Assembly: GCA_963514005.1 (NCBI GenBank)
Contig: OY740805.1
Location: forward strand, 36,146,001-36,210,000
Direction: 5' to 3'
From: Raja brachyura
Taxonomy: Eukaryota
DNA length: 64,000 nt
Shown here: positions 2,697 to 51,521 of the stretch, piece by piece
Layout: each line of letters begins with the position of its first letter
Position numbering within the stretch: position 1 is the stretch's first letter
Notes under the pieces: generated by a model
Database searches by the model: none
Seen by the model: only the letters and a program-made list of their open reading frames with translations
Told to the model about the DNA's origin: nothing
Translations under genes and position numbers: made by a program

Positions 2697-2801
2697 GTTT
2701 ACCTGGACAGGGCTGCGGAAAATGACGCCCACGCCACCAAGATTCGCTGCACGGCTCACCTGGAGGGCTGTGACTGGGTCGGATCCCTGCGGAACTTCCT
2801 G
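2697..2801 (+). CDS. TRAF-like exon (RING-ZF1 linker and start of ZF1): [35 protein letters not shown]
   Basis: tcgcag acceptor at 2691-2696, gtgagt donor at 2802. 105 bp, resembling the TRAF3 VFKDNCCKREILALQIYC.. and TRAF2 FPDNAARREVESLPAVC..GCTWKG segments. Confidence 0.85.
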
Positions 2802-5800
2802 GTGAGTGATCGGGAAACGGGACGGGGGGGGGGGGGGGGGTGGTGGTTAGAGTTCCCCTTACTTTGTGATACATTGTGTGTGTCTCTCCACACTCGTATT
2901 TATATAGCTTGTGTAGACGCACAGTGTCTCTTGCCCAGAGTAGGGGAATCGAGGACCAGAGGACATAGGTTCAGGGTGAAGGGGAAAAGAATCCGAGGGA
3001 TGACTTTTTCCACACAGAGGGTGGTGGGTGTAGAGAAAAAGCTGCCAGAAGAGGTAGTTGAGGCTGGGACTGTCCCATAGTTCAAGAAAAGTTGGACAGG
3101 TACATGGATAGGACAGGTTTGGAAGGTATGGACCAAACGCAGGCAAGAGGGACTAGCGTAGCGGGGACATTGTTGGCCGGTCTGGGCAAGTTGGGCCGAA
3201 GGGCCTGGTTCCATGTCATTTCCGGTCACGGTGGCGCAGCGGTAGAGTTGCTGCCTTGCAGTGAACGCAGCACCAGAGACCAGGGTTCGATCCCGACTAC
3301 GGGTGCTGTCTGTACGGAGTTTGCACGTTCTCCCCGTGACCTGCGTGGGTTTTCTTCGGTTTCCTTCCACACTCCAAAGACGTACAGGTTTTGTAGGTTA
3401 ATTGGCTTCGGTAAATGTAAAAATTGTCCCTAGTGTGTGTAGGATAGTGTTAATGTGCGAGGATTGCTGGTCGGCACGGACCCGGAGGGCCGAAGGGCCT
3501 GTTTCCATGCTGTATCTCTAAACTAAACTAAATCTGGTGTGTTTGGATAGCTTAATTTGTTTGTCTGGAGGTACAGCATGGAAACAGGCCCTTCGGCCCA
3601 CCCAGCCATCCCCTTACACTAGCACTATCCTACACGCACTAGGCACAATTTACAATTTTACCAAAGACATAGAAAATAGGTGCAGGTGTAGGCCATTCGG
3701 CCCTTCGAGCCAGCACCGCCATTCAATATGATCATGGCTGATCATCCAACTCGGTATCCCTTACCTGCCTTCTCTCCATACCCCCTGATCCCTTTAGCCA
3801 CAAGGGCCACATCTAACTCCCTCTTAAATATAGCCAATGAACTGGCCTCAACTACCCTCTGTGGTCTTCTGAGCAAGGCCACCCACCATCAACCTGCAAA
3901 CCTATCTTTGGGAGGAAATCCATGCTGGTCACAGGAAGAATGTGCAGACAGCACCTAATTTGAGGAAGGACATTCTTGCTATTGAGGGACTGCAGCGTAG
4001 GTTGACGAGGTTAATTCCCGGGATGGCTGGACTGTCATATGCTGAGAGAATGGAGCAGCTGGGCTTGTATACTCTGGAGTTCAGAAGGATGAGAGGGGAT
4101 CTCATTGAAACATATAAGGTTGTTACGGTTTTGGACATGCTAGAGGCAGGAAACATGTTCCCGATGTCGGGGGAGTCCAGAACCAGGGGCCACACGGTTT
4201 TAAGAATAAGGAGTAAGCCATTTAGAACGGAGACGAGGAAACACTTTTTCCTCACAGAGTTGTGAGTGTGGAATTCTCTGCCTCGGAGGGCGGTGGAAGC
4301 CGGTTCTCTGGATAATTTCAAGAGAGAGTTAGATAGGGCTCTTAAAGATAGTGGAGTCAGGGGATAGGAGGAGAAGGCGGGAACGGGGTACTAATTGTGG
4401 ATGATCAGCCATGATCACATTGAATGGCGGTGCTGGCTCGAAGGGCCGAATGGCCTACTCCTGCACCTATTGTCTATTGTCATCTGTAGTCAGGATGGAA
4501 CTCGGGCCCCTGCGCTGTGAGGCAGCAACTCTACTGCTGTGGCGTTGGACTTTTATATTATAGCAGCTCATATTTAGGTGAACTAAACTATTCTCGGCAG
4601 GCCAGATGACCCAGTTTTGGGTCAGGACCCTTTTTCCGACTGCTTTGTGATGTGGGAAGAGAATACCTCCAGAGGTCCAACAGTTGGAGGTCACGTTGCA
4701 GTTGTCTAAGACGTTGGTGAGACCGCATTTAGAATATTGTGTTCAGTTCTGGGCACCTTGTTGGAGGAAAGATATTGTCAAACTTGATGGGGTTCGGTAA
4801 AGATTTACGAGGATCTACTGGCGCTGTGAGCCGCTGCAAGGCAGCAACGTTAAGAGGGAGTTAGATGTGTAAGACAGCAATATTTAAGAGGGAGTTAGAT
4901 GTGGTTAAATGGATCAGGGGGGTATGGAGAGAATGCAGGTACAGGATACTGAGTTGGATGATCAGCCATGATCATATTGAATACTCCTGCTCCTATTTTC
5001 GATGTTACTAATTCTACCGCTGCGCCACCGGGTCCTGTGGCGGGCGGAGCAAAGCTTTTCGCTGTACCTCAAGTGCCTGTGACAGTGTTGAACTAAGTTC
5101 TCGATTCGTCCCACAGCGCACGCACCGCGCCAAGTGCGATTTCCACGTGGTCCCGTGCGCCAATGTGGCCTTTGGCTGCCAGGTCTTCGGCCCCAGGAGG
5201 GAGATGGAGCTTCACGAGAGCCGCGAGTGTAGATGGCGGATGGAACGCTGCCCCCATTGCGAGACCTTCTGCGCCCACAACCTGCTGGAGGTGAGTGTAC
5301 GGCTCAGCCAACTCTGGCCCGTAACGTCATGTTGGGTTGCCAACCTTCTCACTCCCAGATAAGGGATAAACATGGCCAAATAATGGACACAAGATGGCCA
5401 ACTAAGGGACACAAGTGTGTCATCCTGTCCCGTCGCGCGCACGCTCTGTCTGCCGCCACTGATGCGCCGGTGTTTGTGTCTTGCAGGACCACGTGGCGAC
5501 CTGTGGGAAACAGGAGAGCTGCCCTCACTGTGGACAGTCCGACTTAACAAAGACAGAGGTGAGAGCCCTGGACACAGAGAGAGAGATCACTCTGCAATTT
5601 TGCATGTTCCACGTGACCACAGAATTCCTTCAGGATGCTCCGATTTCCACTCGCGTCCCAAAGAGGCACCGGTTACTGGGTTAATTGGCTTCCATAGTGA
5701 GTGAGAGAGTGAGAGAGTGAGAGAGTGAGAGAGTGAGAGAGTGAGAGAGTGAGAGAGTGAGAGAGTGAGAGAGTGAGAGAGTGAGAGAGTGAGAGAGTGA

Positions 5801-6197: not shown

Positions 6198-6233
<36 letters not shown>

Positions 6234-9200
6234 ATACACCACTGTGGACACGGGGTCTGCGCTGACCAGCGATCACCCCGTACACTAGCACTATTCTACA
6301 CAACGAAGGACAATTTATAATTTTCCGAAGCCATTTAACTGACAAACCTGCACAACTTTGGGGTGTGGGAGGAAACCGAAGCACCAGGAGAAAACCCACG
6401 CGGGTCACGGGGAGAACATGCAAACTCCATGCAGACAGCACCCGTGGTCAGGATTGAACCCGGGTCTCCAGCGCTGTGAGGCAGTAACTCTACCGCTGCG
6501 ACAGTTGTTCACACCAGTTCTATGTCATCCCATTTCGTACAAATTCGGGATAATTTACAGGGGGCCAATTAAGCTACAATCCTGCACATCTTTGGGAAGT
6601 GGGATGACACACGCACACGCACACCCCCGAGTCGCTGTTGCAGTGTGCTCCACCACTGTGCCACCCACAGCGCGAGTCGATAACAAGCTCAGCAATTGAC
6701 CTCATGTTTTCCTCCTGCAGTTGGAACAACATTGTGACCCTGTCCTTGGCGTCTGTCCCAAGTTGAAGGTGGCCTGTCCCTTTAAGGAGGTCGGCTGTTC
6801 AGTCCAGGTTAGTACCCTCGCACCTACTCAAACTAGTGAGCTCTCCCAGCTCCGTGTTGAAGCCACGTATGATTGTGCAGGACTTCGGTTGTTCTGCATT
6901 CGGAGTACGGTCATAGTGATACAGCGTGGAAACAGGCCCTTCGGCCCGACTTCGGTTGCCTGCACCGGCCAACACGTCCCAGCTACACAAGTCCCACCCA
7001 CCTGCCTTTGGCCCATATCCCTCTAAACCCTCTATCACAGTCATGAGTGATACAGTGTGAAAACAGGCCCTTCGGCCCAACTTGCCCACACTGGCCAACA
7101 TGTCCCAGCTACACAAGTCCAACCCACCTGCATTTGGCCCATATCCCTTCTGGATAACTAAACTGCAGTAGTTGAGGTACAGTGAAAATATTTTGTTGCG
7201 TGCTATCCAGTCAGCGGAAAGATTATAAATGATTGCCATCAAGCCACCCACACTGTACAGATGCAGGATATAAGGGAATAACGTTTAGTGCAAGACAAAG
7301 TCCGATTAAAGATGGTCTGAGGGTCTCCAATGAGGTAGATGGGAGGTCAGGACTGCTCTGTAGTTGGTGAGAGGATGGTTCTGTCGGGCCATTATGGACT
7401 ACACTCTTCCTGAGACCATCTCCTGACGGCTCTGTTTTGATATAGACTTCCCTATCGTTCATTTTCACAAGTGATGGGAGTAGATTCGGTCATTCGGCCC
7501 ATCAAGTCTACTCCACCATTCAATGGTGGATGATCTATTTTTCCCCTCCTAACCCCATTCTCCGGCCTGGGATGCTGCCTGACCCGCTGAGTTTCTCCAG
7601 CACTCTGTGCCTGCTGCAGAGGTATTCGGAAATAACATGGCTGGTAATGTGACAGAGGGAGACGCGATTCCCGGGATGGTGGGACTGTCATATGCTGCGG
7701 GAATGGAGTGGCTGGGCTTGTACACTCTGGAATTTAGAACGGATGAAAGGGAATCTCATTGAAACATAAAAGATTATTAAGGGATTGGACACGCAAGAGG
7801 CAGGAAACATGTTCCTGATGTAGGGGGCGTGCAGAACCAGGGGCCACACAGTTTAAGAATAAGGGGTAAGCCATTTAGAACGGAGGCGAGGAAACACTTT
7901 TTCTCACACAGAGTGGTGAATCTGTGGAATTCTCTGCCTCAGAGGGCGGTGGAGGCCGGTTCTCTGGATACTTTCAAGAGAGCTAGATAGTGGATAGTGG
8001 AGTCGGGGGGATATGGGGAGAAGGCAGGAACTGGGTACTGATTGGGGATGATCAGCCATGATCACATTGAATGGTGGTGCTGGCTGGAAGGGCCGAATGG
8101 CCTACTCCTGCACCTGTTGTCTATTGGAGTCGGAGTGCAGATGTGACTCGCTTGAGACTTGGGGGAACCAACCTATTTTTAACATGTTTCCTGCCAATAG
8201 CATGTCCAATCAATAATATTTTATTATTAATGTTTAATGTTTTATGTGTCATTCCTAACTGCCACTGTGTGCCGTGTTGTTACTTGCGGGTGGAGCACCA
8301 AGGCAAATTCCTTGTATGTGAATACTTGGCCAATAAACTTCATTCATTCGTCGGATGTCCAACACTTTTCCTCTCTGATCCGCAGCTCCCACAACATGAA
8401 ATGTCCGCCCATCTCCGATCATCCCAGGAGAGTCACCTCCTGCTCCTCCTCTCCCTGGCCACCAGTCTCCGCCCCACATCACCAGGTGAGGGAGGATCGA
8501 CGCCTCAGGATTCCGCCCGGACACCGGCCGGAGAACGTCCGAGGAGCCCGGAGGGTGAGGCGGTGGCTGGAGCGGGGACCGGCCTGCAGTCGTTGGCCGG
8601 CCGGGCGGACAACCTGGAGCGGTGGGTGTGCGGGCTGAACAAGGACCTGGACCGCTACGCCCAGGTGATCGAGGTCCTCCAGCAGAAGTGCCTCCAATAC
8701 GAGCAGGTCATCCAGGGCCTGCAGACGGCGGGCGGGCGCGCCGAGGGTCTGGGGGGCCCGGGGCCCGTCAGCACCGATGGGGTCCTGGTGTGGAAGATCA
8801 AGAACTTCTCTGCCCACCTCTCGGCGGCCAAGGCCGGCCAGCGGCCGTCGTTCTACTCGCCGCACTTCGCCACCCACCCGTTCGGCTACCGGATGTGCTG
8901 CCGGATCTATCCCAATGGCGACGGGGCGGGCAAGGGGAGCCACGTCTCGCTCTTCCTGGCGCTGGTGAGGGGGGAATACGACGAGGTTCTCCCCTGGCCC
9001 TTCAGGCAGAAGGTGACCTTCATGCTCCTGGACCAGGCCGGGCAGAAGCACCTGAAGGAGTCCTTCTCCCCCGACTCCCTGAGCGGCTCCTTCCAGAAGC
9101 CCCGCAGCCACATGAACGTGGCCAGCGGTTGCCCAACCTTTGCCCAACATGCCCTGCTGCACAAGGGACCTGGCCAGTATCTCCGGAACGACACCATCTT

Positions 9201-9240
9201 CATCAAGGTGCTGGTGGACCCCATCGCAGTGCAGATGTGA
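2697..9240 (+). CDS. TNF receptor-associated factor (TRAF2/3/5-like), 3' part: join(2697..2801,5117..5290,5487..5558,6721..6807,8386..9240); 5 TRAF zinc fingers + coiled coil + MATH/TRAF-C domain; RING exon(s) probably upstream of window
   Basis: Five exons each flanked by (Y)nCAG and GT, all phase 0, spliced into an open 430-aa frame ending in TGA at 9238-9240. C-x2-6-C...H-x3-7-C/H zinc fingers, and MATH signature motifs [56 protein letters not shown]. Confidence 0.93.
3226..3530 (+). mobile_element. tRNA-derived V-SINE (HE1-like)
   Basis: Same structure, with a (taaac)n tail. Confidence 0.85.
5117..5290 (+). CDS. TRAF-like zinc-finger exon: [21 protein letters not shown]...[14 protein letters not shown]
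   Basis: ccacag acceptor, gtgagt donor at 5291, 174 bp phase 0-0, Cys/His spacing of TRAF zinc fingers. Confidence 0.9.
5487..5558 (+). CDS. TRAF-like zinc-finger exon: [24 protein letters not shown]
   Basis: ttgcag acceptor, gtgaga donor at 5559, 72 bp phase 0-0. Confidence 0.88.
5697..6000. repeat. (GAGAGAGT)n microsatellite grading into GT/GA repeats
   Basis: Direct inspection. Confidence 0.95.
6721..6807 (+). CDS. TRAF-like zinc-finger exon: [29 protein letters not shown]
   Basis: cctcctgcag acceptor, gttagt donor at 6808, 87 bp. CPFKEVGC matches the last TRAF zinc finger (C-x-F-x-x-x-G-C). Confidence 0.9.
7665..8125 (+). mobile_element. CR1 LINE 3' fragment in TRAF intron
   Basis: Same CR1 3' end as the other copies, ending gcacctgttgtctatt. 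Confidence 0.8.
8386..9240 (+). CDS. TRAF-like terminal coding exon: end of ZF5, linker, coiled coil and complete MATH domain
   Basis: Acceptor ttttcctctctgatccgcag ending 8385. In frame with ORF 8071..9240, whose first ~105 codons are intronic repeat sequence. GC-rich codon usage. Confidence 0.95.
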   Translation, partial: LPQHEMSAHLRSSQESHLLLLLSLATSLRPTSPGEGGSTPQDSARTPAGERPRSPEGEAVAGAGTGLQSLAGRADNLERWVCGLNKDLDRYAQVIEVLQQKCLQYEQVIQGLQTAGGRAEGLGGPGPVSTDGVLVWKIKNFSAHLSAAKAGQRPSFYSPHFATHPFGYRMCCRIYPNGDGAGKGSHVSLFLALVRGEYDEVLPWPFRQKVTFMLLDQAGQKHLKESFSPDSLSGSFQKPRSHMNVASGCPTFAQHALLHKGPGQYLRNDTIFIKVLVDPIAVQM

Positions 9241-9457
9241 CTCGCTCGAGACTTGGGGGGAACCAACCCCCGCCGTCACTTCCGGAGGGCGTTTGGTGGG
9301 TCGGTGTGGGGGGCACCTCGAACTGGACCTTCCGCCACTTCTCCAGACTGGAGTCGACTAGATGGCATTCCGTGCCATCCCTGCTCTAGAGAATTGTAAT
9401 GAGGCAGTGGCTATGGGCCTTCTCTCTGAGTGTTTGTGTGTGTGTGTACAACAGATG

Positions 9458-9790
9458 ATAGGTGCGGGAGTAGGCCATTCGGCCCTTCCAGCCAGCACCA
9501 CCATTCAATGTGATCAATAGACAGTAGACAATAGGTGCAGGAGTAGGCCATTTGGCCCTTCCAGCCAGCACCACCACCATTCAATGTGATCAATAGACAG
9601 CAGGTGCAGGAGTTGGCCATTTGGCCCTTCCAGCCAGCACCGCCATTCAATGTGGACAATAGGTGCAGGAGTAGGCCATTTGGCCCTTCGAGCCAGCACC
9701 GCTATTCAATGTGATCAATAGACAGCAGGTGCAGGAGTAGGCCATTCGGCCCTTTGAGCCAGCACCGCCATTCAATGTGATCATGGCTGA
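9458..9790 (-). repeat. Tandem ~60-70-bp reiteration (5 copies) of the CR1 3'-terminal sequence in the TRAF 3' UTR
   Basis: aggtgc(a/g)ggagt(a/t)ggccatt.ggccctt..agccagcacc.ccattcaatgtg is repeated, continuing into a CR1 fragment to ~10090. Confidence 0.85.
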
Positions 9791-10998
9791 TCATCCCCAA
9801 TCAGTACCCCGTTCCTGCCATCTCCCCATATCGCCTGACTCCGCTATCTGTAAAAGCCCCATCTAGCTCTATTGAAAGCATCCAGAGAACCGGCCTCCAC
9901 CGCCCTCTGAGGCAGTGAATTCCACAGACTGACAACTCTCTGAGAGAAAATGTGTTTCCTCATCTCTGTTCTAAATGGCTCGCCCCTTATTCTTAAACTG
10001 TGGCCCCTGGTTCTGGACTCCCCCAAACATCGGGAACATGTTTCCTGCCTCTGGAGTGTCCAAACCCTTTATAATTTGATATGTTTCAATACGTGTGTGT
10101 ATATACAGTGTAGAAGAATGCTTAATTTGTATTTAACTTATTTTAACCTATCAAACTATTTTGTGTACAGTGGCGGTCGGAATATGTCTCTGCTGAAGTT
10201 TTTTAAAATAAGATTGGGAAAATATGAACATAGTTGTTTGCTACTCAATAGACAATAGCAATAGCTCATCATACACATATTTACAGAACTCTGTTAATAA
10301 GTGGCCTGGTGGCGCAGCGGTAGAGTTGCTGCCTCACAGCGCCAGAGCCCCGGGCTCGATCCTGACTACGGGTGCCGCCTGTACCGAGTTTGTGCCTCCT
10401 CCCTGTGACTGCGTGGGTTTTCTCCGGGTGCTCCGGTTTCAATAAGATTGCCCCCCCCGTTCTTCTAAACTCCAGCGAATACAAGCCTAGTCGTTTCAAT
10501 CTTTCCTCATATGACAGTCCCGCCATCCCAGGGGTCAATCTCGTGAATCTAGGCTGCACTGCCTCAACCACAAGAGCAAATAGTGTCTCAGAATCACAAA
10601 ATGAACATGCTTAACCCTCCAGGACAGCTCCCCCCCCCCCCCCCCCCCCCCCCCTCTCATTCCTGCTTCTCCCCTCTCCAGCTCGGCAAAGCCTGACAGC
10701 ACGTCGATAGATTCAGGAACAGATTCTTCCCCTCCTGTTGTGAGATTCTCAGGTGGCCATCTCAAACGCTTGGGACGAACTTCCCGATCTTCCAATCTAC
10801 CTCACATTGCCTGCGCACTTTAAAAAAAAAATATCTGCACTTTCTCAGCAGCCGTTGCACAACATTTGCACTCTACCACTGGTTCACTGCACTTTAATCC
10901 TTATTAAACCAGGTTCTATTTATTTATTTATTGATGTGACTAATTTATTGACTCTTAATATTTCGTTTTGTAATATTGCAACTGCCGTGCTAATTGTT

Positions 10999-11004
10999 AA
11001 TAAA
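10999..11004 (+). promoter_or_regulatory. Probable polyadenylation signal of the TRAF-like gene
   Basis: AATAAA after an AU-rich unique stretch (ATTTA motifs near 10920) and followed by a GT-rich tract. Implies a ~1.8-kb 3' UTR. Confidence 0.5.
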
Positions 11005-11633
11005 AGTTGATGAACGTTCTCAGCTGCTGTGGGTTTCTTCACACAAGTTTTTAAAAAAAACATTTAATTGCTTCTCGTGCAAGAGCATGAGGTGTGACCC
11101 AACCAAGGTGTAGAAAATCACGAGGGGTATAGATAGGGTGAATGCTCAGTCTATTTTCCAAGGGACAGCATCGTGGCGCAGCGGTAGAGTTGCTGCCTCA
11201 CAGCGCCAGAGACCCGGGTTCGTCCGGTCTGTATGGCGTTTGAACTGTACATTCTCCCTGTGACCATGTGGGTTTACTCCGGGTGCTCCGGTTTCCTCCC
11301 ACATCCCAAAGACGTGCAGATCTGTAGGTTAATTGGCTAGGGTGAGTTGTAAAATAGTCCCTCGTGTGTAGGTTAGTGCTAGTGTACGGTGTGATTGCTG
11401 GTTGGCACTGACCCAGTGGGCCAAAGGGCCCGTTTCCGTGCTGTATCTTAGTTTACAGATATAGCGTGGAAACAGGCCCCTTAGGCCCACCGGGTCTGCG
11501 CCGACCAGCGATCCCCGCACATTAACACTATCCTACACCCAACTAGGGATAATTTTTACATTTACACCAAGCGAATTAACCTACAAACCTGCACGTCTTT
11601 GGAGTGTGGGAGGAAACCGAAGAACCACACACA

Positions 11634-12560
11634 GGAAGGCAGATTATTATCCAAATGGTGTCAAGTTGGGAAAAGGGGAAGTACAACAGGATCTGGGGGT
11701 CCTTGTACACCAGTCAATGAAAGTAAGCATGCAGGTATGGCAGGCGGTGACGAAAGCGAATGGCATGTTGGCCTTTATAACAAGAGGAGTTGAGTACAGG
11801 AGCAAAGAGGCCCTTCTGCAGTTGTACAGGGCCCTAGTGAGACCACACCTGGAGTACTGTGTGCAGTTTTGTTCGCAAAATTTGAGGAAGGACATTCTTG
11901 CTATTGAGGGAATGCACCGTAGGTTTACAAGGTTAATTCCCGGGATTGTGGTGCTGTCATATGCTGAGAGAATGGAGCAGCTGGGCTTGTATACTCTGGA
12001 GTTTAGAAGGATGAGAGGGGATCTTATTGGAACATATAAGATTGTTAGGGGATTGGACATACTAGAGGCAGGAAGTATGTTCCTGATGTTGGGGGAGTCC
12101 AGAACCAGGGGTCACAGTTTAAGAATAAGTAAATTTTATATACATAGCACGTTTAAATCTACTCTCATTGAAACCAAAGTGCTTTACATAGAAGAAATAA
12201 TTAAGTTTCCGTACATCCATAGAAAAACGCTAGAGGCAGGAAACATGTTCCTGATGTTGGGGGAGTCCAGAACCAGGGGCCACACAGTTTAAGAATAAGC
12301 GGTAAGTCATTTAGAACAGAGACGAGGAAACACTTTTTCACACAGAGTTGTGAGTGTGGAATTCTCTGCCTCGGAGGGCGGTGGAGGCCGGTTCTCTGGA
12401 TATTTTCAAGGGAGAGCTGGATAGGGCTCTTAAAGATAGCGGAGTCAGGGGATATGGGGAGAAGGCAGGAACGGGGTACTGATTGGGGATGAGCAGCCAT
12501 GATCACATTGAATGGCGGTGCTGGCTTGAAGGGCTGAATGGCCTACTCTTGCGTCTATTG
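11634..12560 (+). mobile_element. CR1 LINE 3' fragment with internal insertion/duplication
   Basis: ORF 11606..12292 is the CR1 RT C-terminus. The tagaggcagg...accagggg segment is duplicated around an AT-rich insert. Confidence 0.85.
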
Positions 12561-12714
12561 GCTTTCTCAGGGAAAACCCACGCAGGTCACGGGGCGAACG
12601 TGCAAACTCCGTACAGACGCACTCGTAGTCGGGATTGAACCTGGGTCTCTGTAAGGCAGCAACTCTACCGCTGCGCCACTGAGACTGTATCTCCAATGTA
12701 ATTCTCAAGCACAT

Positions 12715-13110
12715 CAGCGCCTCTATTTCCTGAGAAGATTACAGAGAGTCTGCATGTCAAGGAGGACTCTTTCTAACTTCTACAGGTTCACAGTAGAGAG
12801 CTTGCTGACCGGTTGCATCGTGGCTTGGTTCGGCAACTTGAGCGCCCTGGAGAGGAAAAGACTCCAAAAAGTAGTAAACACTGCCCAGACCATCATCGGC
12901 TCTGACCTCCCTTCCATCGAGGGGATCTATCGCAGTCACTGCCTCAAAAAGGCTGGCAGCATCATCAAGGACCCACACCATCCTGGCCACACACTCATCT
13001 CCCTGCTACCTTCAGGTAGAAGGTACAGGAGCCTGAGGACTGCAATGACCAGGTTCAGGAATAGCTACTTCCCCACAGCCATCAGGCTATTAAACCTGGC
13101 TCGGCCAAAA
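12715..13110 (+). mobile_element. Rex1/Babar-like LINE 3' fragment (DUF1891-type)
   Basis: NFYRFTVESLLTGCIVAWFGN...LLPSGRRYRS..T.RFRNSYFPTAIRLLN. Confidence 0.8.
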
Positions 13111-13124
13111 CTCTGATCTTTAAC

Positions 13125-15680: not shown

Positions 15681-16069
15681 ATAACCCTTTAATAACCCAT
15701 TATCTGTTATTTGCACTATCAGTTTATTTATTCATGTGTGTATGTATTTATATAATGGTATATGGACGCACTAATCTGTTTTGTATTCATGCCTACTATG
15801 TTCTGTTGTGCTGAAGCAAAGCAAGAATTTCATTGTCCTATCAAGGACACATGGCAATAAACTCACTTGAACTTGGACTTGAACTTAGACCTACCAAAGT
15901 ACAATAGGGGAATCTTGAACCAGCGGGCATAGGTTAAAGCTGAGCTGGGACAGGTAACTGGAGGGGCAACTTTTTCACATCATGGGTGGTGGGTATATGG
16001 AATGAGCTGCCAGAGGAAGTGGTTCTATTAGCAGATGGAATACAGCATTGCAACGTTGGTGTGCGGTCA

Positions 16070-16745
16070 TGTACAGGAAGGAACTGCAGGTGCTGGTTTA
16101 AACCGAAGATAGACACAAAACTCAGCGGGACAGGCAGCATCTCTTGGGAAAAGGAATGGGTGGTGTTTCAGGTCGAGACTTCAGTCTGAAGAAGGGGCAG
16201 AGGTTCACTTGCACCTCCTCCAACCTCATCTACTGTATCCGTTGTTCCAGATTGGGACACTTATCCATTGGGGAGACCAAACGCAGACTTGGCAATCGCT
16301 TCGCTGAACACCTTCGCTCAGTCCGCCTGGACCTGCCTGATCTCCTGGTTGCCAAACACTTTAATTCTCCTTCCCATTCCCGCACTGTCCTTTCTGTCCT
16401 GGGTCTCCTCCATTGTCAGAGTGAGGCTAAAAGCAAATTGGAGGAACAGCATCTTATATTTCGCTTGGGCAGCTTACACCCCAGTGGTATGAACATTGAC
16501 TTATCTAGTCCCCGGCATACCCTCTCTCTCCATCCCCTCCCCCACCGAAGTCACACCAGCTTCTCGTTCTCACCCAGCAAACCCATTCATTGTTCTTTAT
16601 CTTTCCACATCAGTGTCTATCTCTCTCGTTTCCCTTTTCCATGACTTTCAGTCTGAAGAAGGGTCTCGACCGGAAACGTCACCCATTCCTTCTCTCCAGA
16701 GATGCTGCCTGTCCCGCTGAGTTACTCCACCATTTTGTGTCTATG
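16070..16745 (+). mobile_element. Penelope-like element: GIY-YIG fragment flanked by inverted terminal-repeat sequence
   Basis: ORF 16144..16644 encodes GIY-YIG. The terminal repeat (gatgctgcctgtcccgctgagttactcc) is present in opposite orientations on either side. Confidence 0.8.
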
Positions 16746-25228: not shown

Positions 25229-25260
25229 TTAGTTTTCTTCCGGGTTCAGTCCACGTTTTG
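25229..25260 (-). CDS. Last coding exon: (A)KRGLNPEEN-stop; exon continues to a donor at 25222, so the 3' UTR is spliced
   Basis: ctcctctgatccacag acceptor, TAA at 25231-25229, then gatcaag|gtaaga. Confidence 0.72.
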
Positions 25261-43200: not shown

Positions 43201-46200
43201 TACACTAGTCTCACCTGCCTGCGCTTGGTCCATATCCCTCCAAACCTGTCCTGTCATGTACTTGTCCAACTGTTTCTTAAACGTTGGGATAGTCCCAGCC
43301 TCAACTACCTCCTCTGGCAGCTTGTTCCATACACCCACTAAAAAGCCACCCCTCAGATTACTATTAAATCTTTTCCCCTTCACCTTGAACCTATGTCCTC
43401 TGGTCCTCGTTTCCCCTACTCTGGGCAAGAGGCACTGCCTACCCTGAATAAAATTATAACATAGTAATAACTAAATATAAATAGTAAAGGCATGGGAGAA
43501 TTATGCCTATGTAAGAGATCGATCTCTTAGGTAGGCATAATTCTCCGTGCCTTTCATCCGCAGCGCTTGTAACACGGGAAGCTCTGTGCAGCCCACGTGC
43601 CGTCAAGCGCTGCCTGAAGCCGTCAGTTTCAAGCGGGGCTGAAGGCAGCAGAAATTCTGCCTTTGCGGGGTTTTCAAATATGGGTTTCAGTTTCTTGGCA
43701 GGGTTTTCAAATATGGATTGTCAATATTTTAAGTGTATGTTAGGTAACAAAGAGAGAAGAATGGAGTTTGTGTGCCAATAATGTGGTAAGTACATTTTGT
43801 GTTTATATTTTTAAATATTGTATTTCCCGGGGTGTGGGGGTGGGGTGGAGAGCTCCTTTCCAAGCATTTGGCGAGTCTGGCCCGGGGTTAAGTTGCGGGG
43901 AGGGCACGAATGTTATGAATGAGGGGATTGGGATAATGCCACTTGCAACACTCCTTGCACAGAGGTGTGCAATGCCACCGCATTGAGGCAGATGGGGGGG
44001 GGGGGAGAGAGAGAAGTAGCTCGGGTGGCTGAGCGGCCGCTGGGCCGGACAGCGGAACCAGCCGCCACCGTAGCTCCTTCTGCCGGTCCCCGCTCACCTC
44101 TGGCAGCTCTCCGTCTAAAAACCTCTCTCCTGCCGCTCGCTGGCCTCACTCATGTCCTTAAATTCCGACAGCGCGATTGAGGTTACTCGGCTGTGGGAAT
44201 TTAAGGATTTTCAGGAAGCCGCTGACATGAGCGAAATCGGCGAACGGCAGGTGACAGGTGTTCCGACGGAGAGCACTGACAAAGGTGAGCGGGCCGGCAG
44301 AAGGTGCTGAAGTGGCGGCTAGTTCTGCTGTCGGGTCCCGTTGGCCGCTCCCCGAGCTACTTCTATCCCCAGCTACAGTGCGTGGCTTCACGCCCGGAGA
44401 GCTGCGCTAGTTGTGAGTGAGTGAGTTACTGGCAGTATCCCTGACACCCTCCTTCTCAACACTCGTGCCCTCCCCACAACTTTACCCCTGACTCTCCACA
44501 TGCTGTGAAAGGAACTGTTCCCCCAATTGGTCTAGGAAGCCTAGGAAGGGCAAATTGAAATGTCACTGCTTTTAATTAATTTATTTATTTAACGGAGAGA
44601 ACCATCTGCGCATGCGCGGTTTAATTCTTTTAAGCGGACTGAGTGCCTACCCTGAGTAATTACTCACGGCACGTGCCTGCTGTGTGTCTACCCGATCTAT
44701 TCCTCTCATGATTTTATACACATCTATAAGATCACCCCTCATCCTCCTGCGCTCCAAGGAATAGAGTCCCAGCCTGCTCAACCTCTCCTTGCAGTTCACA
44801 CCCTCTAGTTACTGAAACCATAATGTGTGACACACTGTCCCATCCAGTCCCAGAGGGGGAATGGATAGTGTGTTACAATAGACAATAGGTGCAGGAGTAG
44901 GACATTAGGCCCTTCGAGCCAGCACCGCCATTCCCAGTGATCATGGCTGATCATCCACAATCAGTACCCCGTTCCTGCCTTCTCCCCATATCCCCTGACT
45001 CCGCTATCTTTAAGAGCCCTATCTAGCTCTCTCTTAAAAGTATCCAGAGAACCGGCCTCCACCGCCCTCTGAGGCAGAGAATTCCACAGACTCACAACTC
45101 TCTGTGAGAAAAAGTGTTTCCTCGTCTCTGTTCTAAATGCCTTATTCCTTATTCGTAATCTGTGTGGCCCCTGGTTCTGGACTCCGCCAACATCGGGAAC
45201 ATGTTTCCTGTCTCTAGCGTATCCAAACCCTTAATAATCTTATATGTTTCAATAAGATCCCCTCTCATCCTTCTAAACTCCAGAGCATACAATACAATAT
45301 ACAATACAATACAATATTTTATTCCATGTCATTTAAACCTCAGTGAGGCTCAAACCAAACTCCGTTTCCACAGCCATACAAACAAAGACAATTCCTACAA
45401 ATACAAACAATTCACTTTACACAAACATCCATCACAGTGAATCTCCTCCTCACTGTGATGGAAGACAAAGTCTTTTCTATACAAGCCCAGCCGCTCCATT
45501 CTCTCAGCATATGACAATCCCGCCATCCCGGGAATTAACCTTGTAAACCTACGCTGCACTCCCTCAATAGCAAGAATGTCCTTCCTCAAATTAGGGGACC
45601 ATATCGGCACACAATATTCCAGGTGTGGTCTCACCAGGGCCCTGTACAACTGCAGAAGGACCTCTTTGCTCCTATACTCAACTCCTCTCGTCATGAAGGC
45701 CAATAGCCCATTCACTTTCTTCACTGCCTGCTGCACCTGGGTGACACACTGACCCACCCAGTTTGACTGGTCAGAGAGTTAAATAGTTCAACGTCCTTAC
45801 GTTTGGCTCTGCGGGTTTGCCTGCAGAGGTGGATGGAGACGAAGAGGATGCAGCCTTCCAACACGACCGAGAATGCCAGGATCAACAGGAGAATGGTGGC
45901 ACGTTTTATCTTCCCTGTGGAGAAGACAACAGCTCAGAACCTGCAAACAGCAACAGGCCATTCGGCCCCTCAAGGTCAGTCCAGCACACAGCTACATGCG
46001 GGCAGATCTGAACAGTTTATCATTGTATCAGCGAAGGTGACGTTTCTGGTCGAGACCCTTCTTCAGATTTAGTTTAGTTTAGTTTAGCTTTGTTTAGTTT
46101 AGTTGAGTGTAGTTTAGTTTAGAGGTACAACACAAAGACAGGCCCTTCGGCCCATCAAGTCCGCGCTGACCAGCGATCCCCGCACACCAACACTATCCTA

Positions 46201-49200
46201 TACACACTAGGTACTTGGGAAGAAAATAGGTGCAGGAGTCGGCCATTTGGCCCCTCGAGCCAGCACTGCCACTCAACATGACCACGGCTGATCATCCAGA
46301 ACCAGTGCCCCATTCCCGCCCTCTCACCAGATAACTATACCAAGCCTCTTAACCTACAAACCTGTACATCTTGGGAATGTGGGAGGAAACCGGAGCACCC
46401 GGAGAAAACCCACGCAGGTCACGGGGAGAGCGTACAAACTCCGTTCTGTGGTCAGGATGGAATCTGGGTCTCTGGCGCTGTGAGGCAGCAACTCTACCGC
46501 TGCTCCAACGTGCCGAGCGGTGTTGGCCAGGGACGGAGCGATCCCAGGTGGGATACACCTGTCCACGTTCTGAGAGTCCACATCACAGAGGATCTGACAT
46601 GGACAACACACGCTGCCGCACTGGTGAGCAAGGCAAGGCAGCGCCTTTACCACCCCAGGCAGCTGAGGAAATTCAGAGTCTCTCTGAGGGTCCTTCAGTG
46701 CTTCTACTCTGGGGCTGTAGAAAGCATCTTGTCCGGCAACATCACGATTTGGTTTGGGAACAGCTCTGCCCAGGACAGGAAGGCTCCGCAGAGACTAGTG
46801 CGTTCAGTTGATCGCACCACGGGAACTACACTCGCCCCCCCTGCAGGACCTATACACCAGGAGGTGCAGATCCAGAGCCAGCAACATTATGGGGGACCCC
46901 TACCCCCCCAGCAACGGACTGTTCCAGCTGCTACGGTCAGGCAAGCGCCTCCACTGTCAGAATTGTAAACTCTGACCTCACCAGGGAATAATTTACTGTT
47001 GCGTCTTTTTAAAATGTAAATATTGGTTCAGTTGTTCTGTAGTTTTTGCCCAATCCGCAGGCATGGCCACTTTCATTTCATTGCATATCTTGTATATGTA
47101 TGTGACAAATAAAGTTGACCAGGCTAGACCAGAGTAGACCAGACTAGACTTGATATGACTAGACATGACATGACAAGATTAACATGACTCGACTTCTCCA
47201 CGGACGCTGCCCGTACACACGGATAAACCACTCACCTGTCCCGTTCACTTCCAGACTCACGCCTTCTCCATCAGCCTCACCGAGTCCTTCTATCCGCACC
47301 TTGCAGTAGTAATCTCCAGAGTCACTCTGCCTCACATCCACCAGTTGTATAGAAGTGTTGAAAGAGTCATCTTGGAGCGGCCCGATCACACGGCCTGCGT
47401 ACTCCTGAGTTTCATTGGAGACTTGTTTGCCATCCTTGTGCCAGCTGTACTCGCTGGCACCTCTGGAGCGATTGGCATTGTGGGCACAGCTCATGAGGAC
47501 AGTTTGGCCCTCATCCGCGACTATTCTGGACTGGCCTTGCTTCACGGCGAAATACTTGTTTCTTCCAGCTGCGAAATCAAAAGCAGAGCATCAATGCCCC
47601 CTGTTGGACCGAAGATAAACACTAAACGCTGGAGTAACTCAATGCTGTTCTTCTTTGTTCCAACGTCAACTCGTCACCCATTCCTTCTCGTTTCAGAAAG
47701 AACGGCAGATGCTTGTGAAATCGAAGGTAGACAGAAGGAAGAAAATCTGCAGACCCTGTCAATTAGATGCAAAATGCATAGAATGGATTGGATGGCTGCA
47801 AACCAGACATACACCTTGTAAATAATTGTAAATAATGTTGCAGAGTTTAACTATGCCGAGTGTTAATTGGATGAGGTATTGAGCCTTGTCTGGGTTTCTT
47901 GCAGATCAGGGTAAATGTTTCTAAGTTGGCTTCCTACCGAAGTCCGGTTTGAATACATTGTTTTAGCTGCTGTATTATTGGGTCCTGCTTTGTTTTAGCT
48001 GCTGTATCAATGGCCCCTGTTTGGACCGAAGATAGACACTAAACGCTGGAGTAACTCAAAGCTGTTCTTCTTTGTTCCAACGTCAAATCGTCACCCTTCT
48101 CGTTTAAGAAATAACTGCAGATGCTTGTTAAATCGAAGGTAGATTTGCAAAATGCAGGAAAAACTCAGCGGGTGAGGCAGCATCTATGGAGAGAAGGGAA
48201 TTGGTGACATTTCTGGCCTAGATCCTTCATCAGTCTGAAGAAGGGTCTCGACCGGAAACGTCACCAATTGTGACTACCCATTCCTTCTCTCCAGAGACAC
48301 TGCCTGACCCATTGAGTTACTCCAGTTTTTTGTGTCTGTCTTCGGTGTAAACCAGCATCTGCAGTCCCCTCCTTAGGAGGCAAATTTACTGTCAAAACAC
48401 GGGGGGGGGACACAATTTCTTAGCGGCCTCGCGCACACACACACGTGCAAGGCTTCAGCCATGGGCCCTATGGACGGTAACATCGGGAGCTGACCTGGTT
48501 GGTGACCGACTCCGAACTCCAGCAACAGCAGCTTCGTCCGCCCCGAATCGTGGGGCTTGAATCGGCCCGTTTGCGGGGTCTTCCATCGCCAGCGCGGCTT
48601 AAAACCGTGCTTCAACATTGGGAGCCTCGATCGCCTTGTTGCAGCAGTTTGATTTTAAGCCACGCTGGGCATTGAAAGGCCCCGCGAACGGGCCGATTCA
48701 GCCCTTAGAAAGTGACTGATCTGGATCTTTCAAAATCTACAATGTGATACATAACACTTAAATAAATAAATAAATAAAACTAAAGCAAATAAAGGCAAAC
48801 AGAAGAACCAACCTTGGAGGGGGGAGAGAGAGAGAGATGGGAATAAAATACTAAATAAGGTGAGTGACCTTAATGAGGGACTTACCTGCAAGCCACCCAG
48901 GAAACCTGTTCAACCGGATTCCTTAATGACCTAACCCGTTTAAATCTGATACCCGTTTAAATCTTTCCCATCCACCAATATATCCAATTAGTTCAAATGG
49001 TAATTGTACCTGCATCAGACAGCTTTCAAAACACAATTGTTGACACATCATGTTAATATGATGTTAATAGAGACATTTAACAAGTGCTTAATAGTGACAC
49101 CCCTGTTAATTCTGGCCAAATTGGAGAGGCTAGGACATTAAAATGGGGTAAAAGCTTCAGGGCTGTTGGGAGATTTAGTCAATTTGGAATTGCTCTGTGC

Positions 49201-51521
49201 AGTGTTGGGACAAGCTGCGGAGTGGTGCCAATGTGTCTAGAGCCTCGATACAAGTTGCAGGAAAAGAATAAGAACATCTGCAGACCCTGTCAATTAGATG
49301 CAAAATGCATAGAATGGATTGGATGGCTGCAAACCAGACATACACCTTGTAAATAATTGTAAATAATGTTGCAGAGTTTAACTTTGCCGAGTGTTAATTG
49401 GATGAGGTATTGAGCCTTGTCTGGGTTTCTTGCAGATCAGGGGTAAATGTTTCTAAGTTGGCTTCCTACCGAAGTCCGGTTTGAATACATTGTTTGAGGT
49501 GCTGTATCATTGGGTTAGGGAAATGTCTGTTATGTATGGGGTTAATCGATATCTGTAATTGGATTATTAAGAGACCAACCCCATGTAGTTCGGCCCCTCG
49601 AGGTCCCGGGACCTATAAAGGTCCACTACCACGAGGTCCCACATTGATCATCTGGGAGAGCGCTTCGGACTGCGCTTTGTTAAAATAAAGATTAGTTGTT
49701 CAAGTGCTAGATTCAGTGTTTCTGACTGAAACTAGACTGGAGGGAAGCTTAGAACAAACAATTTACATGGTGACACATCATGTTAATACGATGTTAATAG
49801 AGACATTTAACAAGCGCTTAAAAGTGACACCCACCACTGTCTCATGGAAAGCGGAGATTTTAATGGGTTTTTTTCACCGAAATTCAAAATCCAGATTAAA
49901 AAACATGGGGTGGGGGGGGGGGGGAAACACACACGTGTCCACACACCGCCCCCCCCCCCCCCACCCCCACCCCATGCCCCTCCAGGATTTCATGCCTTTC
50001 TACACACAGTGGACGTGGGTGCCTGAGGAAATATGCTGTTTTTAATCGACTCGTTTTATGGATCAGTCACATCTCTCTCTCACTGGATTTGATTGACTGA
50101 AAGATACCGCGTGGAAATCGAGTGACCGTCAGGGGATTTGATAATAGCGTCTCATTCACTCACTCACTCACTCACTCATTTATTAACTTCTGTCGCGGGC
50201 TGTGGGTCTGATTCACTGGAGATAGCGGAGTGATCACTTACCGTTCACTGTGAGATACGTCCCTGTCCCATATGCCTCGCTCCTCAGAGTTTTCACCTGA
50301 CAGAAATACAGACCGGAATCGTTAATCCGCACGTTATTCAATTGTATAGAAGCGTCCGTGTCTGTAGCCGCTGCATCCGGCGCTTTGAGTCTGAAGACAC
50401 GACCTCTGTATTCCGCTGTTTTATTGGAAACAGACGTCCCATTTGTGGCTCCCTTGAACCAATAGTTGGCCCATATTTGATCCGCGGCGTTGTGACTACA
50501 CGGGATAATCACCGTGTCGCCTTCAGTGGCCGCAATCGTGGACGTGTCTTGAATGACTGCGATCTTCTCAGCGTCAACACCTGCGGGCGGCAAGCAAAGT
50601 CTACTTGGTACTTGGGACCCGCTGGCTACACGGTCCCTAGCTTTCTCTCTTCATCCCCTTCCCCGTCCCAGTTCTCCCACCAGTCTCACTGTCTCTGACT
50701 ACATTCTAGCTCTGTCCCGCCCCCTCCCCCTCCCCTGACATCAGGCTGGAGAAGGGTCTCGACCCGAAACGTCGCCCATTCCTTCTCTCCAGAGATGCTG
50801 AGTTACTCCAGCATTTTGTGTCTGCCAACGAGTTAAACCGGCATCTGCAGTTCTTTCATACACATGTACCTGACCAAATGTCTATTAAATGGCATGATGG
50901 TACCTGTCTCAACTACCTCCTCCAGCAACTTGTTCCCTATACCTCGATTCACCGACTCTGGGCAAGAGACTCTGTGCGTCTACCCGATCTATTCCTCTCA
51001 TGATTTTAGACACCCTTATAAGAACCCCTCCCTTCATCCTCCTGTGCTCCAAGGAATAGAGTCTCAGCCTACTCAACCTCTCCCCACAGCTCACACCCTC
51101 TAGTCCTGGCAACATCCTCGTAAATCTTCTCTGTACCCTATCCAAATTCCACAGTTTACAAGCCCAGCTGCTCCATTCCCTCTGCATATGACAGTCCCGC
51201 CATCCCGGGAATTAACCTGGTGAACCTACGCTGCACTCCCTCAACAGCAAGAATGTCCTTCCTCAAATTAGGGGACCAAAACTGCACACAATACTCCAGA
51301 TGCGGAGTAAATACGGGACAAAACCAATTTAGCCCAATATACGGGATGTCCCGGCTAATACGCGACAGTTGGCAAAACGCTATTGGCACCCCATGCCTCC
51401 TCGCCACCCCTCATCAACCCCCCCTCCCCTCTCTTCCCAACAGCGACCCCACTGCGAAACAGAAATCCAACTCACCCGCGGCCACAGACAGGATCCACAC
51501 TATGGCGCCTGGCCCCACCAT
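25229..51521 (-). CDS. NKp30/NCR3-family receptor with two VJ-type IgV domains and long tyrosine-motif tail, 405 aa: complement(join(25229..25260,26602..26636,29508..29602,33276..33319,34620..34657,35824..35867,38357..38397,39339..39376,40827..40845,45801..45914,47236..47568,50242..50580,51476..51521))
   Basis: 13 exons sum to 1218 nt (406 codons with stop). Every junction has an AG acceptor and a GT donor (one GC), and phases match throughout (1,1,1,1,2,1,0,2,1,0,2,1). Both V domains resemble human NKp30 (EG-x4-(P/S)C-x-x-NA, W, V-x-N-x-T-x-E(Y/F)xGR(V/L), C-x-V...GLG..xGxG). Confidence 0.85.
25275..26548 (+). mobile_element. Two tandem CR1 LINE 3' fragments
   Basis: ORFs 25356..25676 and 25810..26397 are CR1 RT C-termini. 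Confidence 0.85.
26602..26636 (-). CDS. Cytoplasmic micro-exon 8 (35 bp): (E)QDDGYDELNVT
   Basis: ctctttgctctgcag acceptor, gtaaga donor, phase 2-1. Confidence 0.78.
26742..27035 (+). mobile_element. tRNA-derived V-SINE (HE1-like)
   Basis: Same structure. Further copies at ~11170, 34740, 51650, 54900 (-) and 62130. Confidence 0.8.
28078..28581. mobile_element. hAT (Charlie-like) non-autonomous element remnant
   Basis: CAGGGGTGGGCAACC 5' end, with gcgggccg / ggcccgggggccgtag subterminal motifs. Confidence 0.45.
28580..29346 (+). mobile_element. CR1 LINE 3' fragment (second subfamily)
   Basis: ORF 28628..29020, with a tail ending in (ttctatgt)-like repeats. Confidence 0.85.
29508..29602 (-). 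CDS. Cytoplasmic exon 7 (95 bp): TSTDEGIQYAIIVQKPSTDQPPNASVGDDEM, ITIM IQYAII
   Basis: ccttctgctccaacag acceptor, gtgagt donor, phase 0-2. Confidence 0.8.
30490..31300 (+). mobile_element. Rex1/Babar-like LINE 3' fragment
   Basis: LNSKKTKELIVDFR..VERVSSF.FLG, NFYRCTIESILT, LLPSGRRYRS, with an (aattg)n tail. Confidence 0.82.
32360..32507. other. Assembly gap (other gaps: 33617-33839, 34332-34564, 55544-55724, 62427-62853)
   Basis: Runs of N. Confidence 0.99.
33276..33319 (-). CDS. Cytoplasmic micro-exon 6 (44 bp): (D)TKTQRNIIHISHGN
   Basis: ttttctcatccgcttctcccccag acceptor, gtaagc donor, phase 1-0. Confidence 0.72.
33440..34331. repeat. Polypurine (GGAGA-type) low-complexity tract bounded by gaps
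   Basis: Almost exclusively G/A on the + strand, with internal ~150-bp reiteration. Confidence 0.9.
34620..34657 (-). CDS. Cytoplasmic micro-exon 5 (38 bp): (S)LRTFNAPPDQDG, with GC donor
   Basis: ctttctccttacag acceptor, GAG|GCAAGT donor (GC-AG consensus). Phase 2-1 restores the frame. Confidence 0.68.
35824..35867 (-). CDS. Cytoplasmic micro-exon 4 (44 bp): ESQLANPSIYLPME, YxxM motif
   Basis: ctttctttgcctttgacag acceptor, gttggt donor, phase 0-2. Confidence 0.75.
35980..36695 (-). mobile_element. CR1 LINE 3' fragment
   Basis: ORF 36214..36687. Confidence 0.85.
36905..37101. repeat. Near-perfect ~197-bp palindrome of Penelope terminal repeat, carrying two minimal hammerhead motifs
   Basis: gggttacacaaaaagctggag...cttcttcagactg is mirrored by cagtctgaagaag...ctccagctttttgtgtaaccc. 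Confidence 0.85.
37600..38175 (+). mobile_element. Penelope-like element GIY-YIG fragment and terminal repeat
   Basis: Same GIY-YIG-coding sequence as the copies at 2300 and 23850. Confidence 0.75.
38357..38397 (-). CDS. Cytoplasmic micro-exon 3 (41 bp): (A)DPTSPLTDDEPEL
   Basis: ttaattttgcag acceptor, gtgagt donor, phase 1-0. Confidence 0.75.
39339..39376 (-). CDS. Cytoplasmic micro-exon 2 (38 bp): (S)LEAFPLTPMVTD
   Basis: ttctttcttccttgctccacag acceptor, gtaagt donor, phase 2-1. Confidence 0.78.
39545..40106 (-). mobile_element. CR1 LINE 3' fragment (third subfamily)
   Basis: ORF 39672..40106: [27 protein letters not shown]. Confidence 0.85.
40827..40845 (-). CDS. Cytoplasmic micro-exon 1 (19 bp): (R)TILDQ
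   Basis: Long polypyrimidine tract ttttctctttttatctccattctttcacag, donor gtgggt. Phase 1-2 is required to join the next exon. Confidence 0.75.
43430..44678. mobile_element. Unclassified non-autonomous insertion (AGGCAC...GTGCCT ends) interrupting a CR1 fragment
   Basis: CR1 sequence ...ctctgggcaag resumes as ctgtgtgtctacccgatct on the other side. Subterminal direct repeat tgcctaccctga. Confidence 0.55.
44880..45738 (-). mobile_element. CR1 LINE 3' fragment with nested insertion
   Basis: ORF 45395..45757 and CR1 tail at 44880-45285, interrupted at ~45290-45480. Confidence 0.8.
45801..45914 (-). CDS. NCR3-like transmembrane exon: (G)KIKRATILLLILAFSVVLEGCILFVSIHLCRQTRRAK
   Basis: gttgtcttctccacag acceptor, gtaagg donor, 114 bp phase 1-1. 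~24-aa hydrophobic stretch followed by a basic stop-transfer sequence RQTRRAK. Confidence 0.88.
46560..47160 (+). mobile_element. Rex1/Babar-like LINE 3' fragment
   Basis: VHITEDLTWTTH..KARQRLY..FYSGAVESILSGNITIWFGN. Confidence 0.75.
47236..47568 (-). CDS. NCR3-like IgV (VJ-type) domain 2
   Basis: 333 bp phase 1-1. EGQTVLMSC...YSWHKDG...EYAGRV...DSGDYYCKVRIEGLGEADGEGVSLEV, close to NKp30 CRVEVLGLGVGTGNGTRLVV. Confidence 0.93.
49104..49767 (+). mobile_element. Putative LTR (TG...CA) of an LTR retroelement
   Basis: Starts TGTTA, ends TTACA, TATAAA at 49614 and AATAAA at 49684, followed by PBS-like TGGTG. Confidence 0.5.
50242..50580 (-). CDS. NCR3-like IgV (VJ-type) domain 1
   Basis: 339 bp phase 1-1. 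EGDTVIIPC...YWFKG...EYRGRV...DSGLYFCQV...YGTGTYLTV, with canonical Cys-Trp-Cys, DxxxYxC and a J-like GxGTxLxV. Confidence 0.93.
51476..51521 (-). CDS. NCR3-like leader exon: MVGPGAIVWILSVAA(G)
   Basis: ATG at 51521, hydrophobic core, gtgagt donor in phase 1, completed by GVDA in the next exon. An acceptor (tttatccag) 2 nt upstream of the ATG implies an upstream 5' exon. Confidence 0.8.

Follow-up and report, generated by a model that had tools for sequence, protein, structure and literature searches.

A 64,000-nucleotide stretch of the skate Raja brachyura (contig OY740805.1, positions 36,146,001 to 36,210,000; hereafter the window, meaning this whole stretch) carries two host genes amid transposon debris, a TRAF gene on the plus strand and, converging on it from the minus strand, a gene of the NCR3 (NKp30) receptor family. 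We favour, with a probability of roughly 0.62, the reading that the window is a piece of the skate major histocompatibility complex (MHC) class III region, in which a TRAF of a separate lineage, probably an ohnologue of TRAF1 and TRAF2, has an NCR3-family neighbour, the direct contact between the two genes probably being specific to the lineage.

The five TRAF exons found in 2697-9240 (plus strand) are all of phase 0 with AG/GT borders (Table 1), the models of this gene and of its neighbour being predictions from sequence. They cover residues 69-495 of the orthologue P0001 of Leucoraja erinacea, which carries the name 'TRAF2-like', with 91-97% identity per exon and 91% overall. Residues 1-68, with the RING, lie upstream beyond the window, and the RING is present in P0001. 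Together with the TRAF zinc fingers and a coiled coil followed by a MATH (TRAF-C) domain, this identifies the gene as a member of the TRAF family. The C-terminal MATH domain on the last exon matches Pfam PF21355 (E=1e-41) and conserves the receptor-groove motifs. In a low-confidence single-sequence structure model (mean predicted local distance difference test score, pLDDT, 52) a helix at 65-115 precedes the strands, and the ESM Atlas returned generic TRAF clusters only.

Homologues were taken from the best 120 of 216 matches. The top 46 come from rays, sharks, coelacanth, caecilians, salamanders, squamates and turtles (four unnamed) and are labelled variously TRAF1-, 2-, 3- or 5-like. A tree was built from the window sequence, 18 of these 46 proteins and two cluster members, set against TRAF1, TRAF3-like, hemichordate, mollusc, brachiopod and coral rows. 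The window and 20 database proteins formed one clade (support 100/100), which recurred in a full-length subset tree of 25 rows and stands apart from the TRAF1, TRAF3-like, hemichordate and coral rows. Orthology to TRAF1 was rejected, the window lying outside a vertebrate TRAF1 clade that is likewise supported at 100/100. Bird and frog matches tested were TRAF1, and no mammal or teleost names occur among the best 120 of 216 matches, which is weak evidence of absence; to our knowledge, humans have no gene of this lineage. In these trees, the window TRAF represents a separate jawed-vertebrate lineage.

Elasmobranchs possess two copies of this clade. The branch of the window contains Leucoraja, sawfish (P0002), stingrays, catshark and white shark (P0013), and the second contains white shark (P0295), Heterodontus and Pristiophorus; P0295, P0016 and P0019 belong to this second copy. 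The lizard, snake and turtle members (P0029-P0046) are mostly ~350-380 amino acids long, retaining RING and MATH and having lost most zinc fingers.

To place the lineage on chromosomes, we compared the records of its members with published MHC maps, using main-text passages and parts of the supplementary tables of PMC10751288; the placement on MHC chromosomes covers catshark, axolotl and sawfish, with records of Anolis, turtle and caecilian outside that set. In catshark, the orthologue and LOC119975535 are on one record; the latter, a receptor relative, lies on the catshark MHC chromosome in the supplementary parts covered (PMC10751288). The axolotl orthologue is on a record of 848,590,089 bases, MHC chromosome 13 of axolotl being given as 848.6 Mb in the part of that source covered (PMC12619710). 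In sawfish, the orthologue P0002, named TRAF3-like, is on a record of 19,913,265 bases, and the table of the MHC chromosome, chr34, ends at 19.83 Mb and shows one TRAF3-like gene, at 5.88 Mb, preceded by BAG6 and a FAM102A-like gene and followed by a DDR gene (PMC10751288). Name and record length match P0002 to this class III gene. ABHD16A and NFKBIL1 flank a TRAF2-like gene at 4.61 Mb in the same table, which also has three NCR3-like genes at 5.11-5.22 Mb (PMC10751288). On the tables covered, the MHC location across jawed vertebrates was therefore found at chromosome level in catshark and axolotl and, by name and length, at class III level in sawfish. In white shark, both TRAF copies are on one 115.8-Mb record, compatible with chr19, for which the table was covered to 112.4 Mb. 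Reedfish MHC chr1 has a TRAF3-like gene between AIF1 and DDAH2, next to three uncharacterised genes, and this same interval holds the NCR3 cluster in white shark, catshark and sawfish (PMC10751288, tables in part).

Some further observations on these tables may be recorded. The presence of a FAM102A-like gene near both sawfish TRAFs suggests a local block duplication, and an unnamed gene at 111.43 Mb of white shark chr19 has a position matching the sawfish TRAF2-like gene (PMC10751288 supplement, in part). The catshark sheet is titled chr37, whereas its gene symbols point to chromosome 13 (same supplement).

TRAF-clade members and immunoglobulin (Ig) relatives of the receptor are on the same record in all eight comparable species (two Mobula, Hemitrygon, Hypanus, Heterodontus, Cetorhinus, catshark and Chiloscyllium plagiosum), where the TRAF counted in Heterodontus and Cetorhinus is the second copy and the records of the Ig relatives were checked for 10 of 150 matches plus 4 further. 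Chiloscyllium punctatum does not count among these species, as the record behind its receptor protein is at scaffold level. The pairing is consequently non-random, which argues against the adjacency being an assembly mis-join, or the block lying outside the MHC in this species. That explanation would draw on a repeat-rich, gapped assembly (55% of the window sequence recurs inside the window) and on the Leucoraja orthologue sitting on a 0.74-Mb scaffold; none of the five N gaps of the window falls within the interval separating the two stop codons, and we regard it as very improbable. We are highly confident of an MHC location of the TRAF locus, and the relatives' positions make it very likely that the window locus is MHC class III.

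Neighbouring genes connect this locus to TRAF1 and TRAF2. Reedfish chr9 is MHC paralogue 9 and carries, over ~10 Mb, a TRAF1-like gene and traf2b among prrc2b, aif1l, ier5l, PBX3, a TOR4A-like gene, ier3, a CLIC gene and sapcd2, so that this species has traf2b on chr9 besides its MHC TRAF; around the sawfish TRAFs lie PRRC2A, AIF1, IER3-like, TOR4A-like, CLIC1 and SAPCD-like genes (PMC10751288, tables in part). By gene names, the TRAF neighbours on sawfish chr34 and reedfish chr9 are thus paralogous in the rows covered. The proposal of the first-pass annotation that TRAF1 and TRAF2 (human 9q33-34) lie in an MHC-paralogous block is borne out by these reedfish rows. Its parallel argument from TRAF5 on 1q falls away, as TRAF5 lies at 1q32, outside the MHC paralogue at 1q21-25, and pairs with TRAF3. 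The class III ohnologue pairs CLIC1/CLIC3, PRRC2A/PRRC2B, AIF1/AIF1L, NOTCH4/NOTCH1 and PBX2/PBX3 likewise have one MHC copy and one chromosome-9 copy; unlike in pairs of the CLIC1/CLIC3 type, the MHC copy of TRAF is missing from human.

Besides the conserved receptor-groove motifs, the window lineage is like TRAF1 and TRAF2 in its RING region, which scores best against human TRAF2, and in a coiled-coil motif that aligns in register, at a non-significant E=0.81, with the helix that human TRAF2 contributes to its complex with cIAP. This motif is present in the window, in 11/22 clade members, in 7/8 TRAF1 and in 6/11 hemichordate or unnamed TRAF2-like rows, and occurs in 0/8 TRAF3-like rows, 0/4 coral-type rows and 2/1150 shuffles. 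In approximately unbiased (AU) tests, forcing the clade together with TRAF1 was not rejected (p=0.29, at a cost of 2 log units), and forcing it with the TRAF1/hemichordate group gave p=0.21. TRAF3 and TRAF5 are alike to the clade in slightly best MATH scores, and several clade members are named TRAF3-like or TRAF5-like; a position as sister or member of the vertebrate TRAF3-like branch was nevertheless rejected for the skate TRAF3-like gene, the single vertebrate row in that test (p=0.015).

Conversely, the clade differs from TRAF1 and TRAF2 by its separate position on a long stem, a shorter coiled coil, the missing PF16673 match, its MHC location and the substitution of Pro for Leu/Ile in the R-x-Y-x-x-G-D-G motif (13/13 clade rows checked). 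A single 855-nt terminal exon encodes both coiled coil and MATH in the window, whereas human TRAF1 and TRAF2 have introns in MATH. The long stem, the open attachment of the clade and this single exon speak for another reading, in which the TRAF is MHC-linked and not a TRAF1/2 ohnologue: it would be either an older branch that has no invertebrate members left or a duplicate with few introns that arose early and entered the MHC before sharks and bony fish split. Hemichordate TRAF2-like coiled coils also outscore those of the clade against a TRAF1 profile (32-66 versus 3-25 bits), in keeping with such an origin. We consider it unlikely, given the rich paralogy of the MHC neighbours with the TRAF1/2 block (in the tables covered), the common coiled-coil motif, the RING score and the non-rejected grouping with TRAF1.

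Several points weigh against our favoured reading. The tree was made without vertebrate TRAF2, named TRAF5, TRAF4 and TRAF6, it leaves the attachment and root of the clade open, and when unconstrained it keeps the long-stemmed clade apart from TRAF1. The coiled-coil motif was defined after the sequences had been inspected, the match to the TRAF2 coiled-coil structure is non-significant (E=0.81), and Pfam PF16673 (cIAP/BIRC3-binding) matches neither the seven database clade members tested nor the window exon; the coiled coil of P0295 had 0 matches in PDB. MATH alone scores slightly higher against TRAF3 than against TRAF1 or TRAF2, human TRAF2 giving lower values than both TRAF3 and TRAF1. Chromosome placements were made by record lengths and names, some chromosomes being ~200 Mb or more, the reedfish TRAF3-like gene is known by its name in the table, and the MHC placement of the window derives from relatives in other species. 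Taking both sides together, we judge it rather probable that the window TRAF is the MHC-side genome-duplication sister of TRAF1/TRAF2. Of the MHC-linked ohnologue originally proposed, what stands is that the gene forms its own lineage, linked to the MHC chromosome in several groups of jawed vertebrates, and the sister status to TRAF1/2 is allowed rather than demonstrated.

The receptor gene comprises 12 exons on the minus strand, from the ATG at 51521 to a TAA ending at 25229, with an open frame of 397 amino acids made up, after the leader, of two V-domain exons, one transmembrane exon and eight tail exons. The open frame requires the acceptor at 39371; use of the nearer AG at 39376 would need an extra small exon, for which no convincing candidate was seen between 45800 and 39377. 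Because of this acceptor choice and a GC donor (predicted GC-AG intron, 34620-34614, minus strand), the tail model is given as predicted. End to end, the protein is 47-49% identical to the ray proteins P0136 and P0289 (Mobula, Hypanus). A profile of receptor relatives run against solved structures ranked human NKp30 first with 75 bits, the next family being SIRP with 47.5. The single-exon V domains with their J-like end, nearest to NKp30, and the MHC-linked relatives assign the gene to the NCR3/NKp30 family. Human NKp30 has one V domain, a membrane Arg and a short tail. The window receptor differs in having two V domains, a helix with Glu as sole charged residue and no basic one, and a 130-residue, eight-exon tail with YxxM, immunoreceptor tyrosine-based inhibitory (ITIM) and DxGYxxL motifs, which are all kept in Mobula, Hypanus and catshark relatives. 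The gene first described as NCR3-like is thus indeed a family member, as a paralogue and not as canonical NKp30.

In a V-domain tree, in which the domain cutting missed four proteins and the ray V2 domains, V1 of the window groups with Mobula and Hypanus (99/98) and shark orthology remains open. A word-based search with V1 alone for longer proteins gave 0 matches among 240 candidates, which is weak evidence, and the nine proteins among the matches listed in the receptor profile search included none from skate, sawfish or white shark. Shark NCR3 variants have reportedly been described (Kinlein 2021, Janes 2023), so the receptor form may already be named. The Mobula hypostoma proteins P0134, P0136 and P0287 have consecutive accessions, the ray receptors appear to form a tandem family whose members carry two to five V domains, and Heterodontus has one- and three-domain receptor forms with a membrane Glu as in the window. 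The closest catshark relative in the set is LOC119975535 (tail E=1e-11), which maps to 30.5 Mb in the interval from C4B-H to an RGL-like gene, where its neighbour bears the label NCR3 (PMC10751288, tables in part). It lies outside the catshark AIF1-DDAH2 NCR3 cluster at 13.5 Mb, the protein of which was not in the comparison set. LOC119975535 and LOC119975537 are NCR3-like, flank the C4/RGL genes and do not bear the NCR3 label (PMC10751288 supplement, in part).

As first described, the two genes converge with ~16 kb between their stop codons, the exact distance being 15,988 bp. No third gene was found between them among the frames scanned against Pfam (120 stop-to-stop frames of at least 75 amino acids outside both genes; small-exon genes could escape), and the matches, in 7/120 frames, were all to transposon-type or repeat-derived models. 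The first-pass annotation had read this tail-to-tail arrangement as a possible primordial MHC class III neighbourhood. According to the sawfish annotation in the tables covered, nine genes and 0.65 Mb separate the orthologous TRAF from the nearest NCR3-like gene, and white shark, catshark and sawfish clearly differ in the order of their class III genes. This separation, the closest catshark relative lying in a second, C4-linked cluster, and the differing order indicate that the regional linkage of TRAF and NCR3 is old and that the direct contact probably is not. The synteny comparison accordingly upholds regional linkage, with both families on the same record in every species compared, and shows no adjacency in the sawfish annotation, so that a primordial contact is not supported.

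On the other side, the sawfish TRAF faces the DDR gene across a 65 kb unannotated stretch, wide enough to hide a receptor gene, and since the genes in the white shark and catshark tables are mostly unnamed, a conserved adjacency would still be compatible with the rows covered. Such a contact might be ancestral and kept through shared regulation or a functional link between TNF and natural killer (NK) cells, and would accord with the same-chromosome placement in 8/8 species and with the reedfish TRAF3-like gene next to uncharacterised genes in the AIF1-DDAH2 interval. This we find improbable: the sawfish distance and the position of the closest catshark relative away from the AIF1-DDAH2 cluster speak against it, and convergent genes share no promoter. 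Binding of TRAF to the receptor tail was rejected, as the tail has no TRAF-binding motif, in a scan where the TRAF2/3/5 motif arises in 37% of shuffled tails; nothing else indicated a functional pairing of the two genes either. White shark TNF-family genes lie ~5 Mb from the NCR3 cluster (PMC10751288, tables in part), and the suggested TNF-pathway/NK-receptor unit thus finds no support. The direct TRAF/NCR3 contact is likely a lineage-specific arrangement within an old neighbourhood.

Table 1. Coordinates of the TRAF gene, the NCR3-family receptor gene and the stretch between them, as positions in the window
Feature	Position	Strand	Remark
TRAF exon, end of RING region and first zinc finger	2697..2801	+	97% to P0001 residues 69-103
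TRAF zinc-finger exon	5117..5290	+	91% to P0001 104-161
TRAF zinc-finger exon	5487..5558	+	92% to P0001 162-185
TRAF zinc-finger exon	6721..6807	+	93% to P0001 186-214
Last TRAF exon (855 nt), with the coiled coil, the complete MATH (TRAF-C) domain and the TGA	8386..9240	+	
Intergenic stretch	9241..25228	.	15,988 bp, gap-free; 56% recurs elsewhere in window
Receptor, last coding exon with TAA, predicted	25229..25260	-	
Receptor, tail exon with DxGYxxL (hemITAM-like) motif	26602..26636	-	
Receptor, tail exon with ITIM (IQYAII)	29508..29602	-	
Receptor, tail exon, predicted	33276..33319	-	
Receptor, tail exon with GC splice donor, predicted	34620..34657	-	
Receptor, tail exon with YxxM motif, predicted	35824..35867	-	
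Receptor, tail exon, predicted	38357..38397	-	
Receptor, tail exon, predicted	39339..39371	-	acceptor 39371 keeps frame
Receptor, transmembrane exon, helix without Arg or Lys, one Glu	45801..45914	-	
Receptor, V domain 2	47236..47568	-	44% identical to V1; 60% to Mobula V2
Receptor, V domain 1, single exon, J-like G-x-G end	50242..50580	-	
Receptor, leader exon with ATG	51476..51521	-	

Elsewhere in the window, a Tc1-type DNA transposon with long terminal inverted repeats occupies 56381-57900, with a transposase frame at 56604-57503 (minus strand) of which the N-terminus is not intact. Broken long interspersed nuclear element (LINE) reverse-transcriptase/endonuclease pieces and a GIY-YIG (Penelope-like) piece are found at 13561-15731, 52618-53019 and 60826-61569 (minus strand) and at 23838-24170 (plus strand). 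In the last TRAF intron, ~40 bp at 8134-8175 copy the TRAF stop codon region (9228 onward) and resemble the edge of a local duplication or insertion. Rfam and tRNA scans of the window gave no matches.

While the gene structures, their convergence, the separate clade and the shared chromosome were observed directly, the mechanism and history outlined here are what we infer from them. By analogy with TRAF2, TRAF3 and TRAF5, the window TRAF would trimerise on tails of TNF-receptor-family members as a ubiquitin-ligase adaptor, possibly recruiting cIAP via its TRAF2-like coiled-coil segment. The receptor would signal via its own tyrosine motifs (ITIM, YxxM, DxGYxxL), with a likely inhibitory or mixed outcome and, unlike human NKp30, without a charged membrane adaptor; the two products are not predicted to act on one another. 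Historically, one TRAF1/2-type gene would have resided in the proto-MHC, the genome duplication would have yielded TRAF1/2 on the chromosome-9 paralogue and the window TRAF in the MHC, and sharks would later have duplicated the MHC TRAF and mammals lost it. It appears slightly better than even that jawed vertebrates originally had this extra TRAF as an MHC ohnologue of TRAF1/2, placed in class III next to receptors of the NCR3 type, with the TNF/lymphotoxin genes on that chromosome too. It would have been kept in sharks and rays (two copies), reedfish, coelacanth, caecilians, salamanders, lizards and turtles under database names such as TRAF2-like and TRAF3-like, and lost in mammals, the proto-MHC having held TNF ligands and adaptor together.

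The word TRAF has 0 occurrences in the main texts of PMC10751288, PMC12227049, PMC12619710, PMC9679377, PMC12863176 and PMC10210626, and a term search in the axolotl supplement text gave 0 matches. At listing level, we found no published description of an MHC-linked TRAF; figures, subscription papers (Ohta 2019) and the Anolis, newt and amphibian supplements may mention one. In the published MHC tables covered (PMC10751288 supplement), the gene already stands as a row that drew no comment. It is probably an overlooked, unrecognised MHC class III TRAF ohnologue that was lost in mammals. The adjacency with the receptor gene is by itself of little importance. If the ohnologue reading is true, it would add a missing gene, a TNF-receptor adaptor inside the MHC, to the reconstructed primordial immune complex and would give TRAF1/2 of the chromosome-9 block their paralogous partner. 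Moreover, it corrects a widespread mis-annotation, in which one clade goes under the names TRAF1-, 2-, 3- and 5-like, the receptor extends the NKp30 family by a multi-domain form that bears an ITIM, and the TRAF lineage offers a further branch of TNF-receptor signalling that can be tested in vertebrates other than mammals, for which axolotl and Pleurodeles are models.

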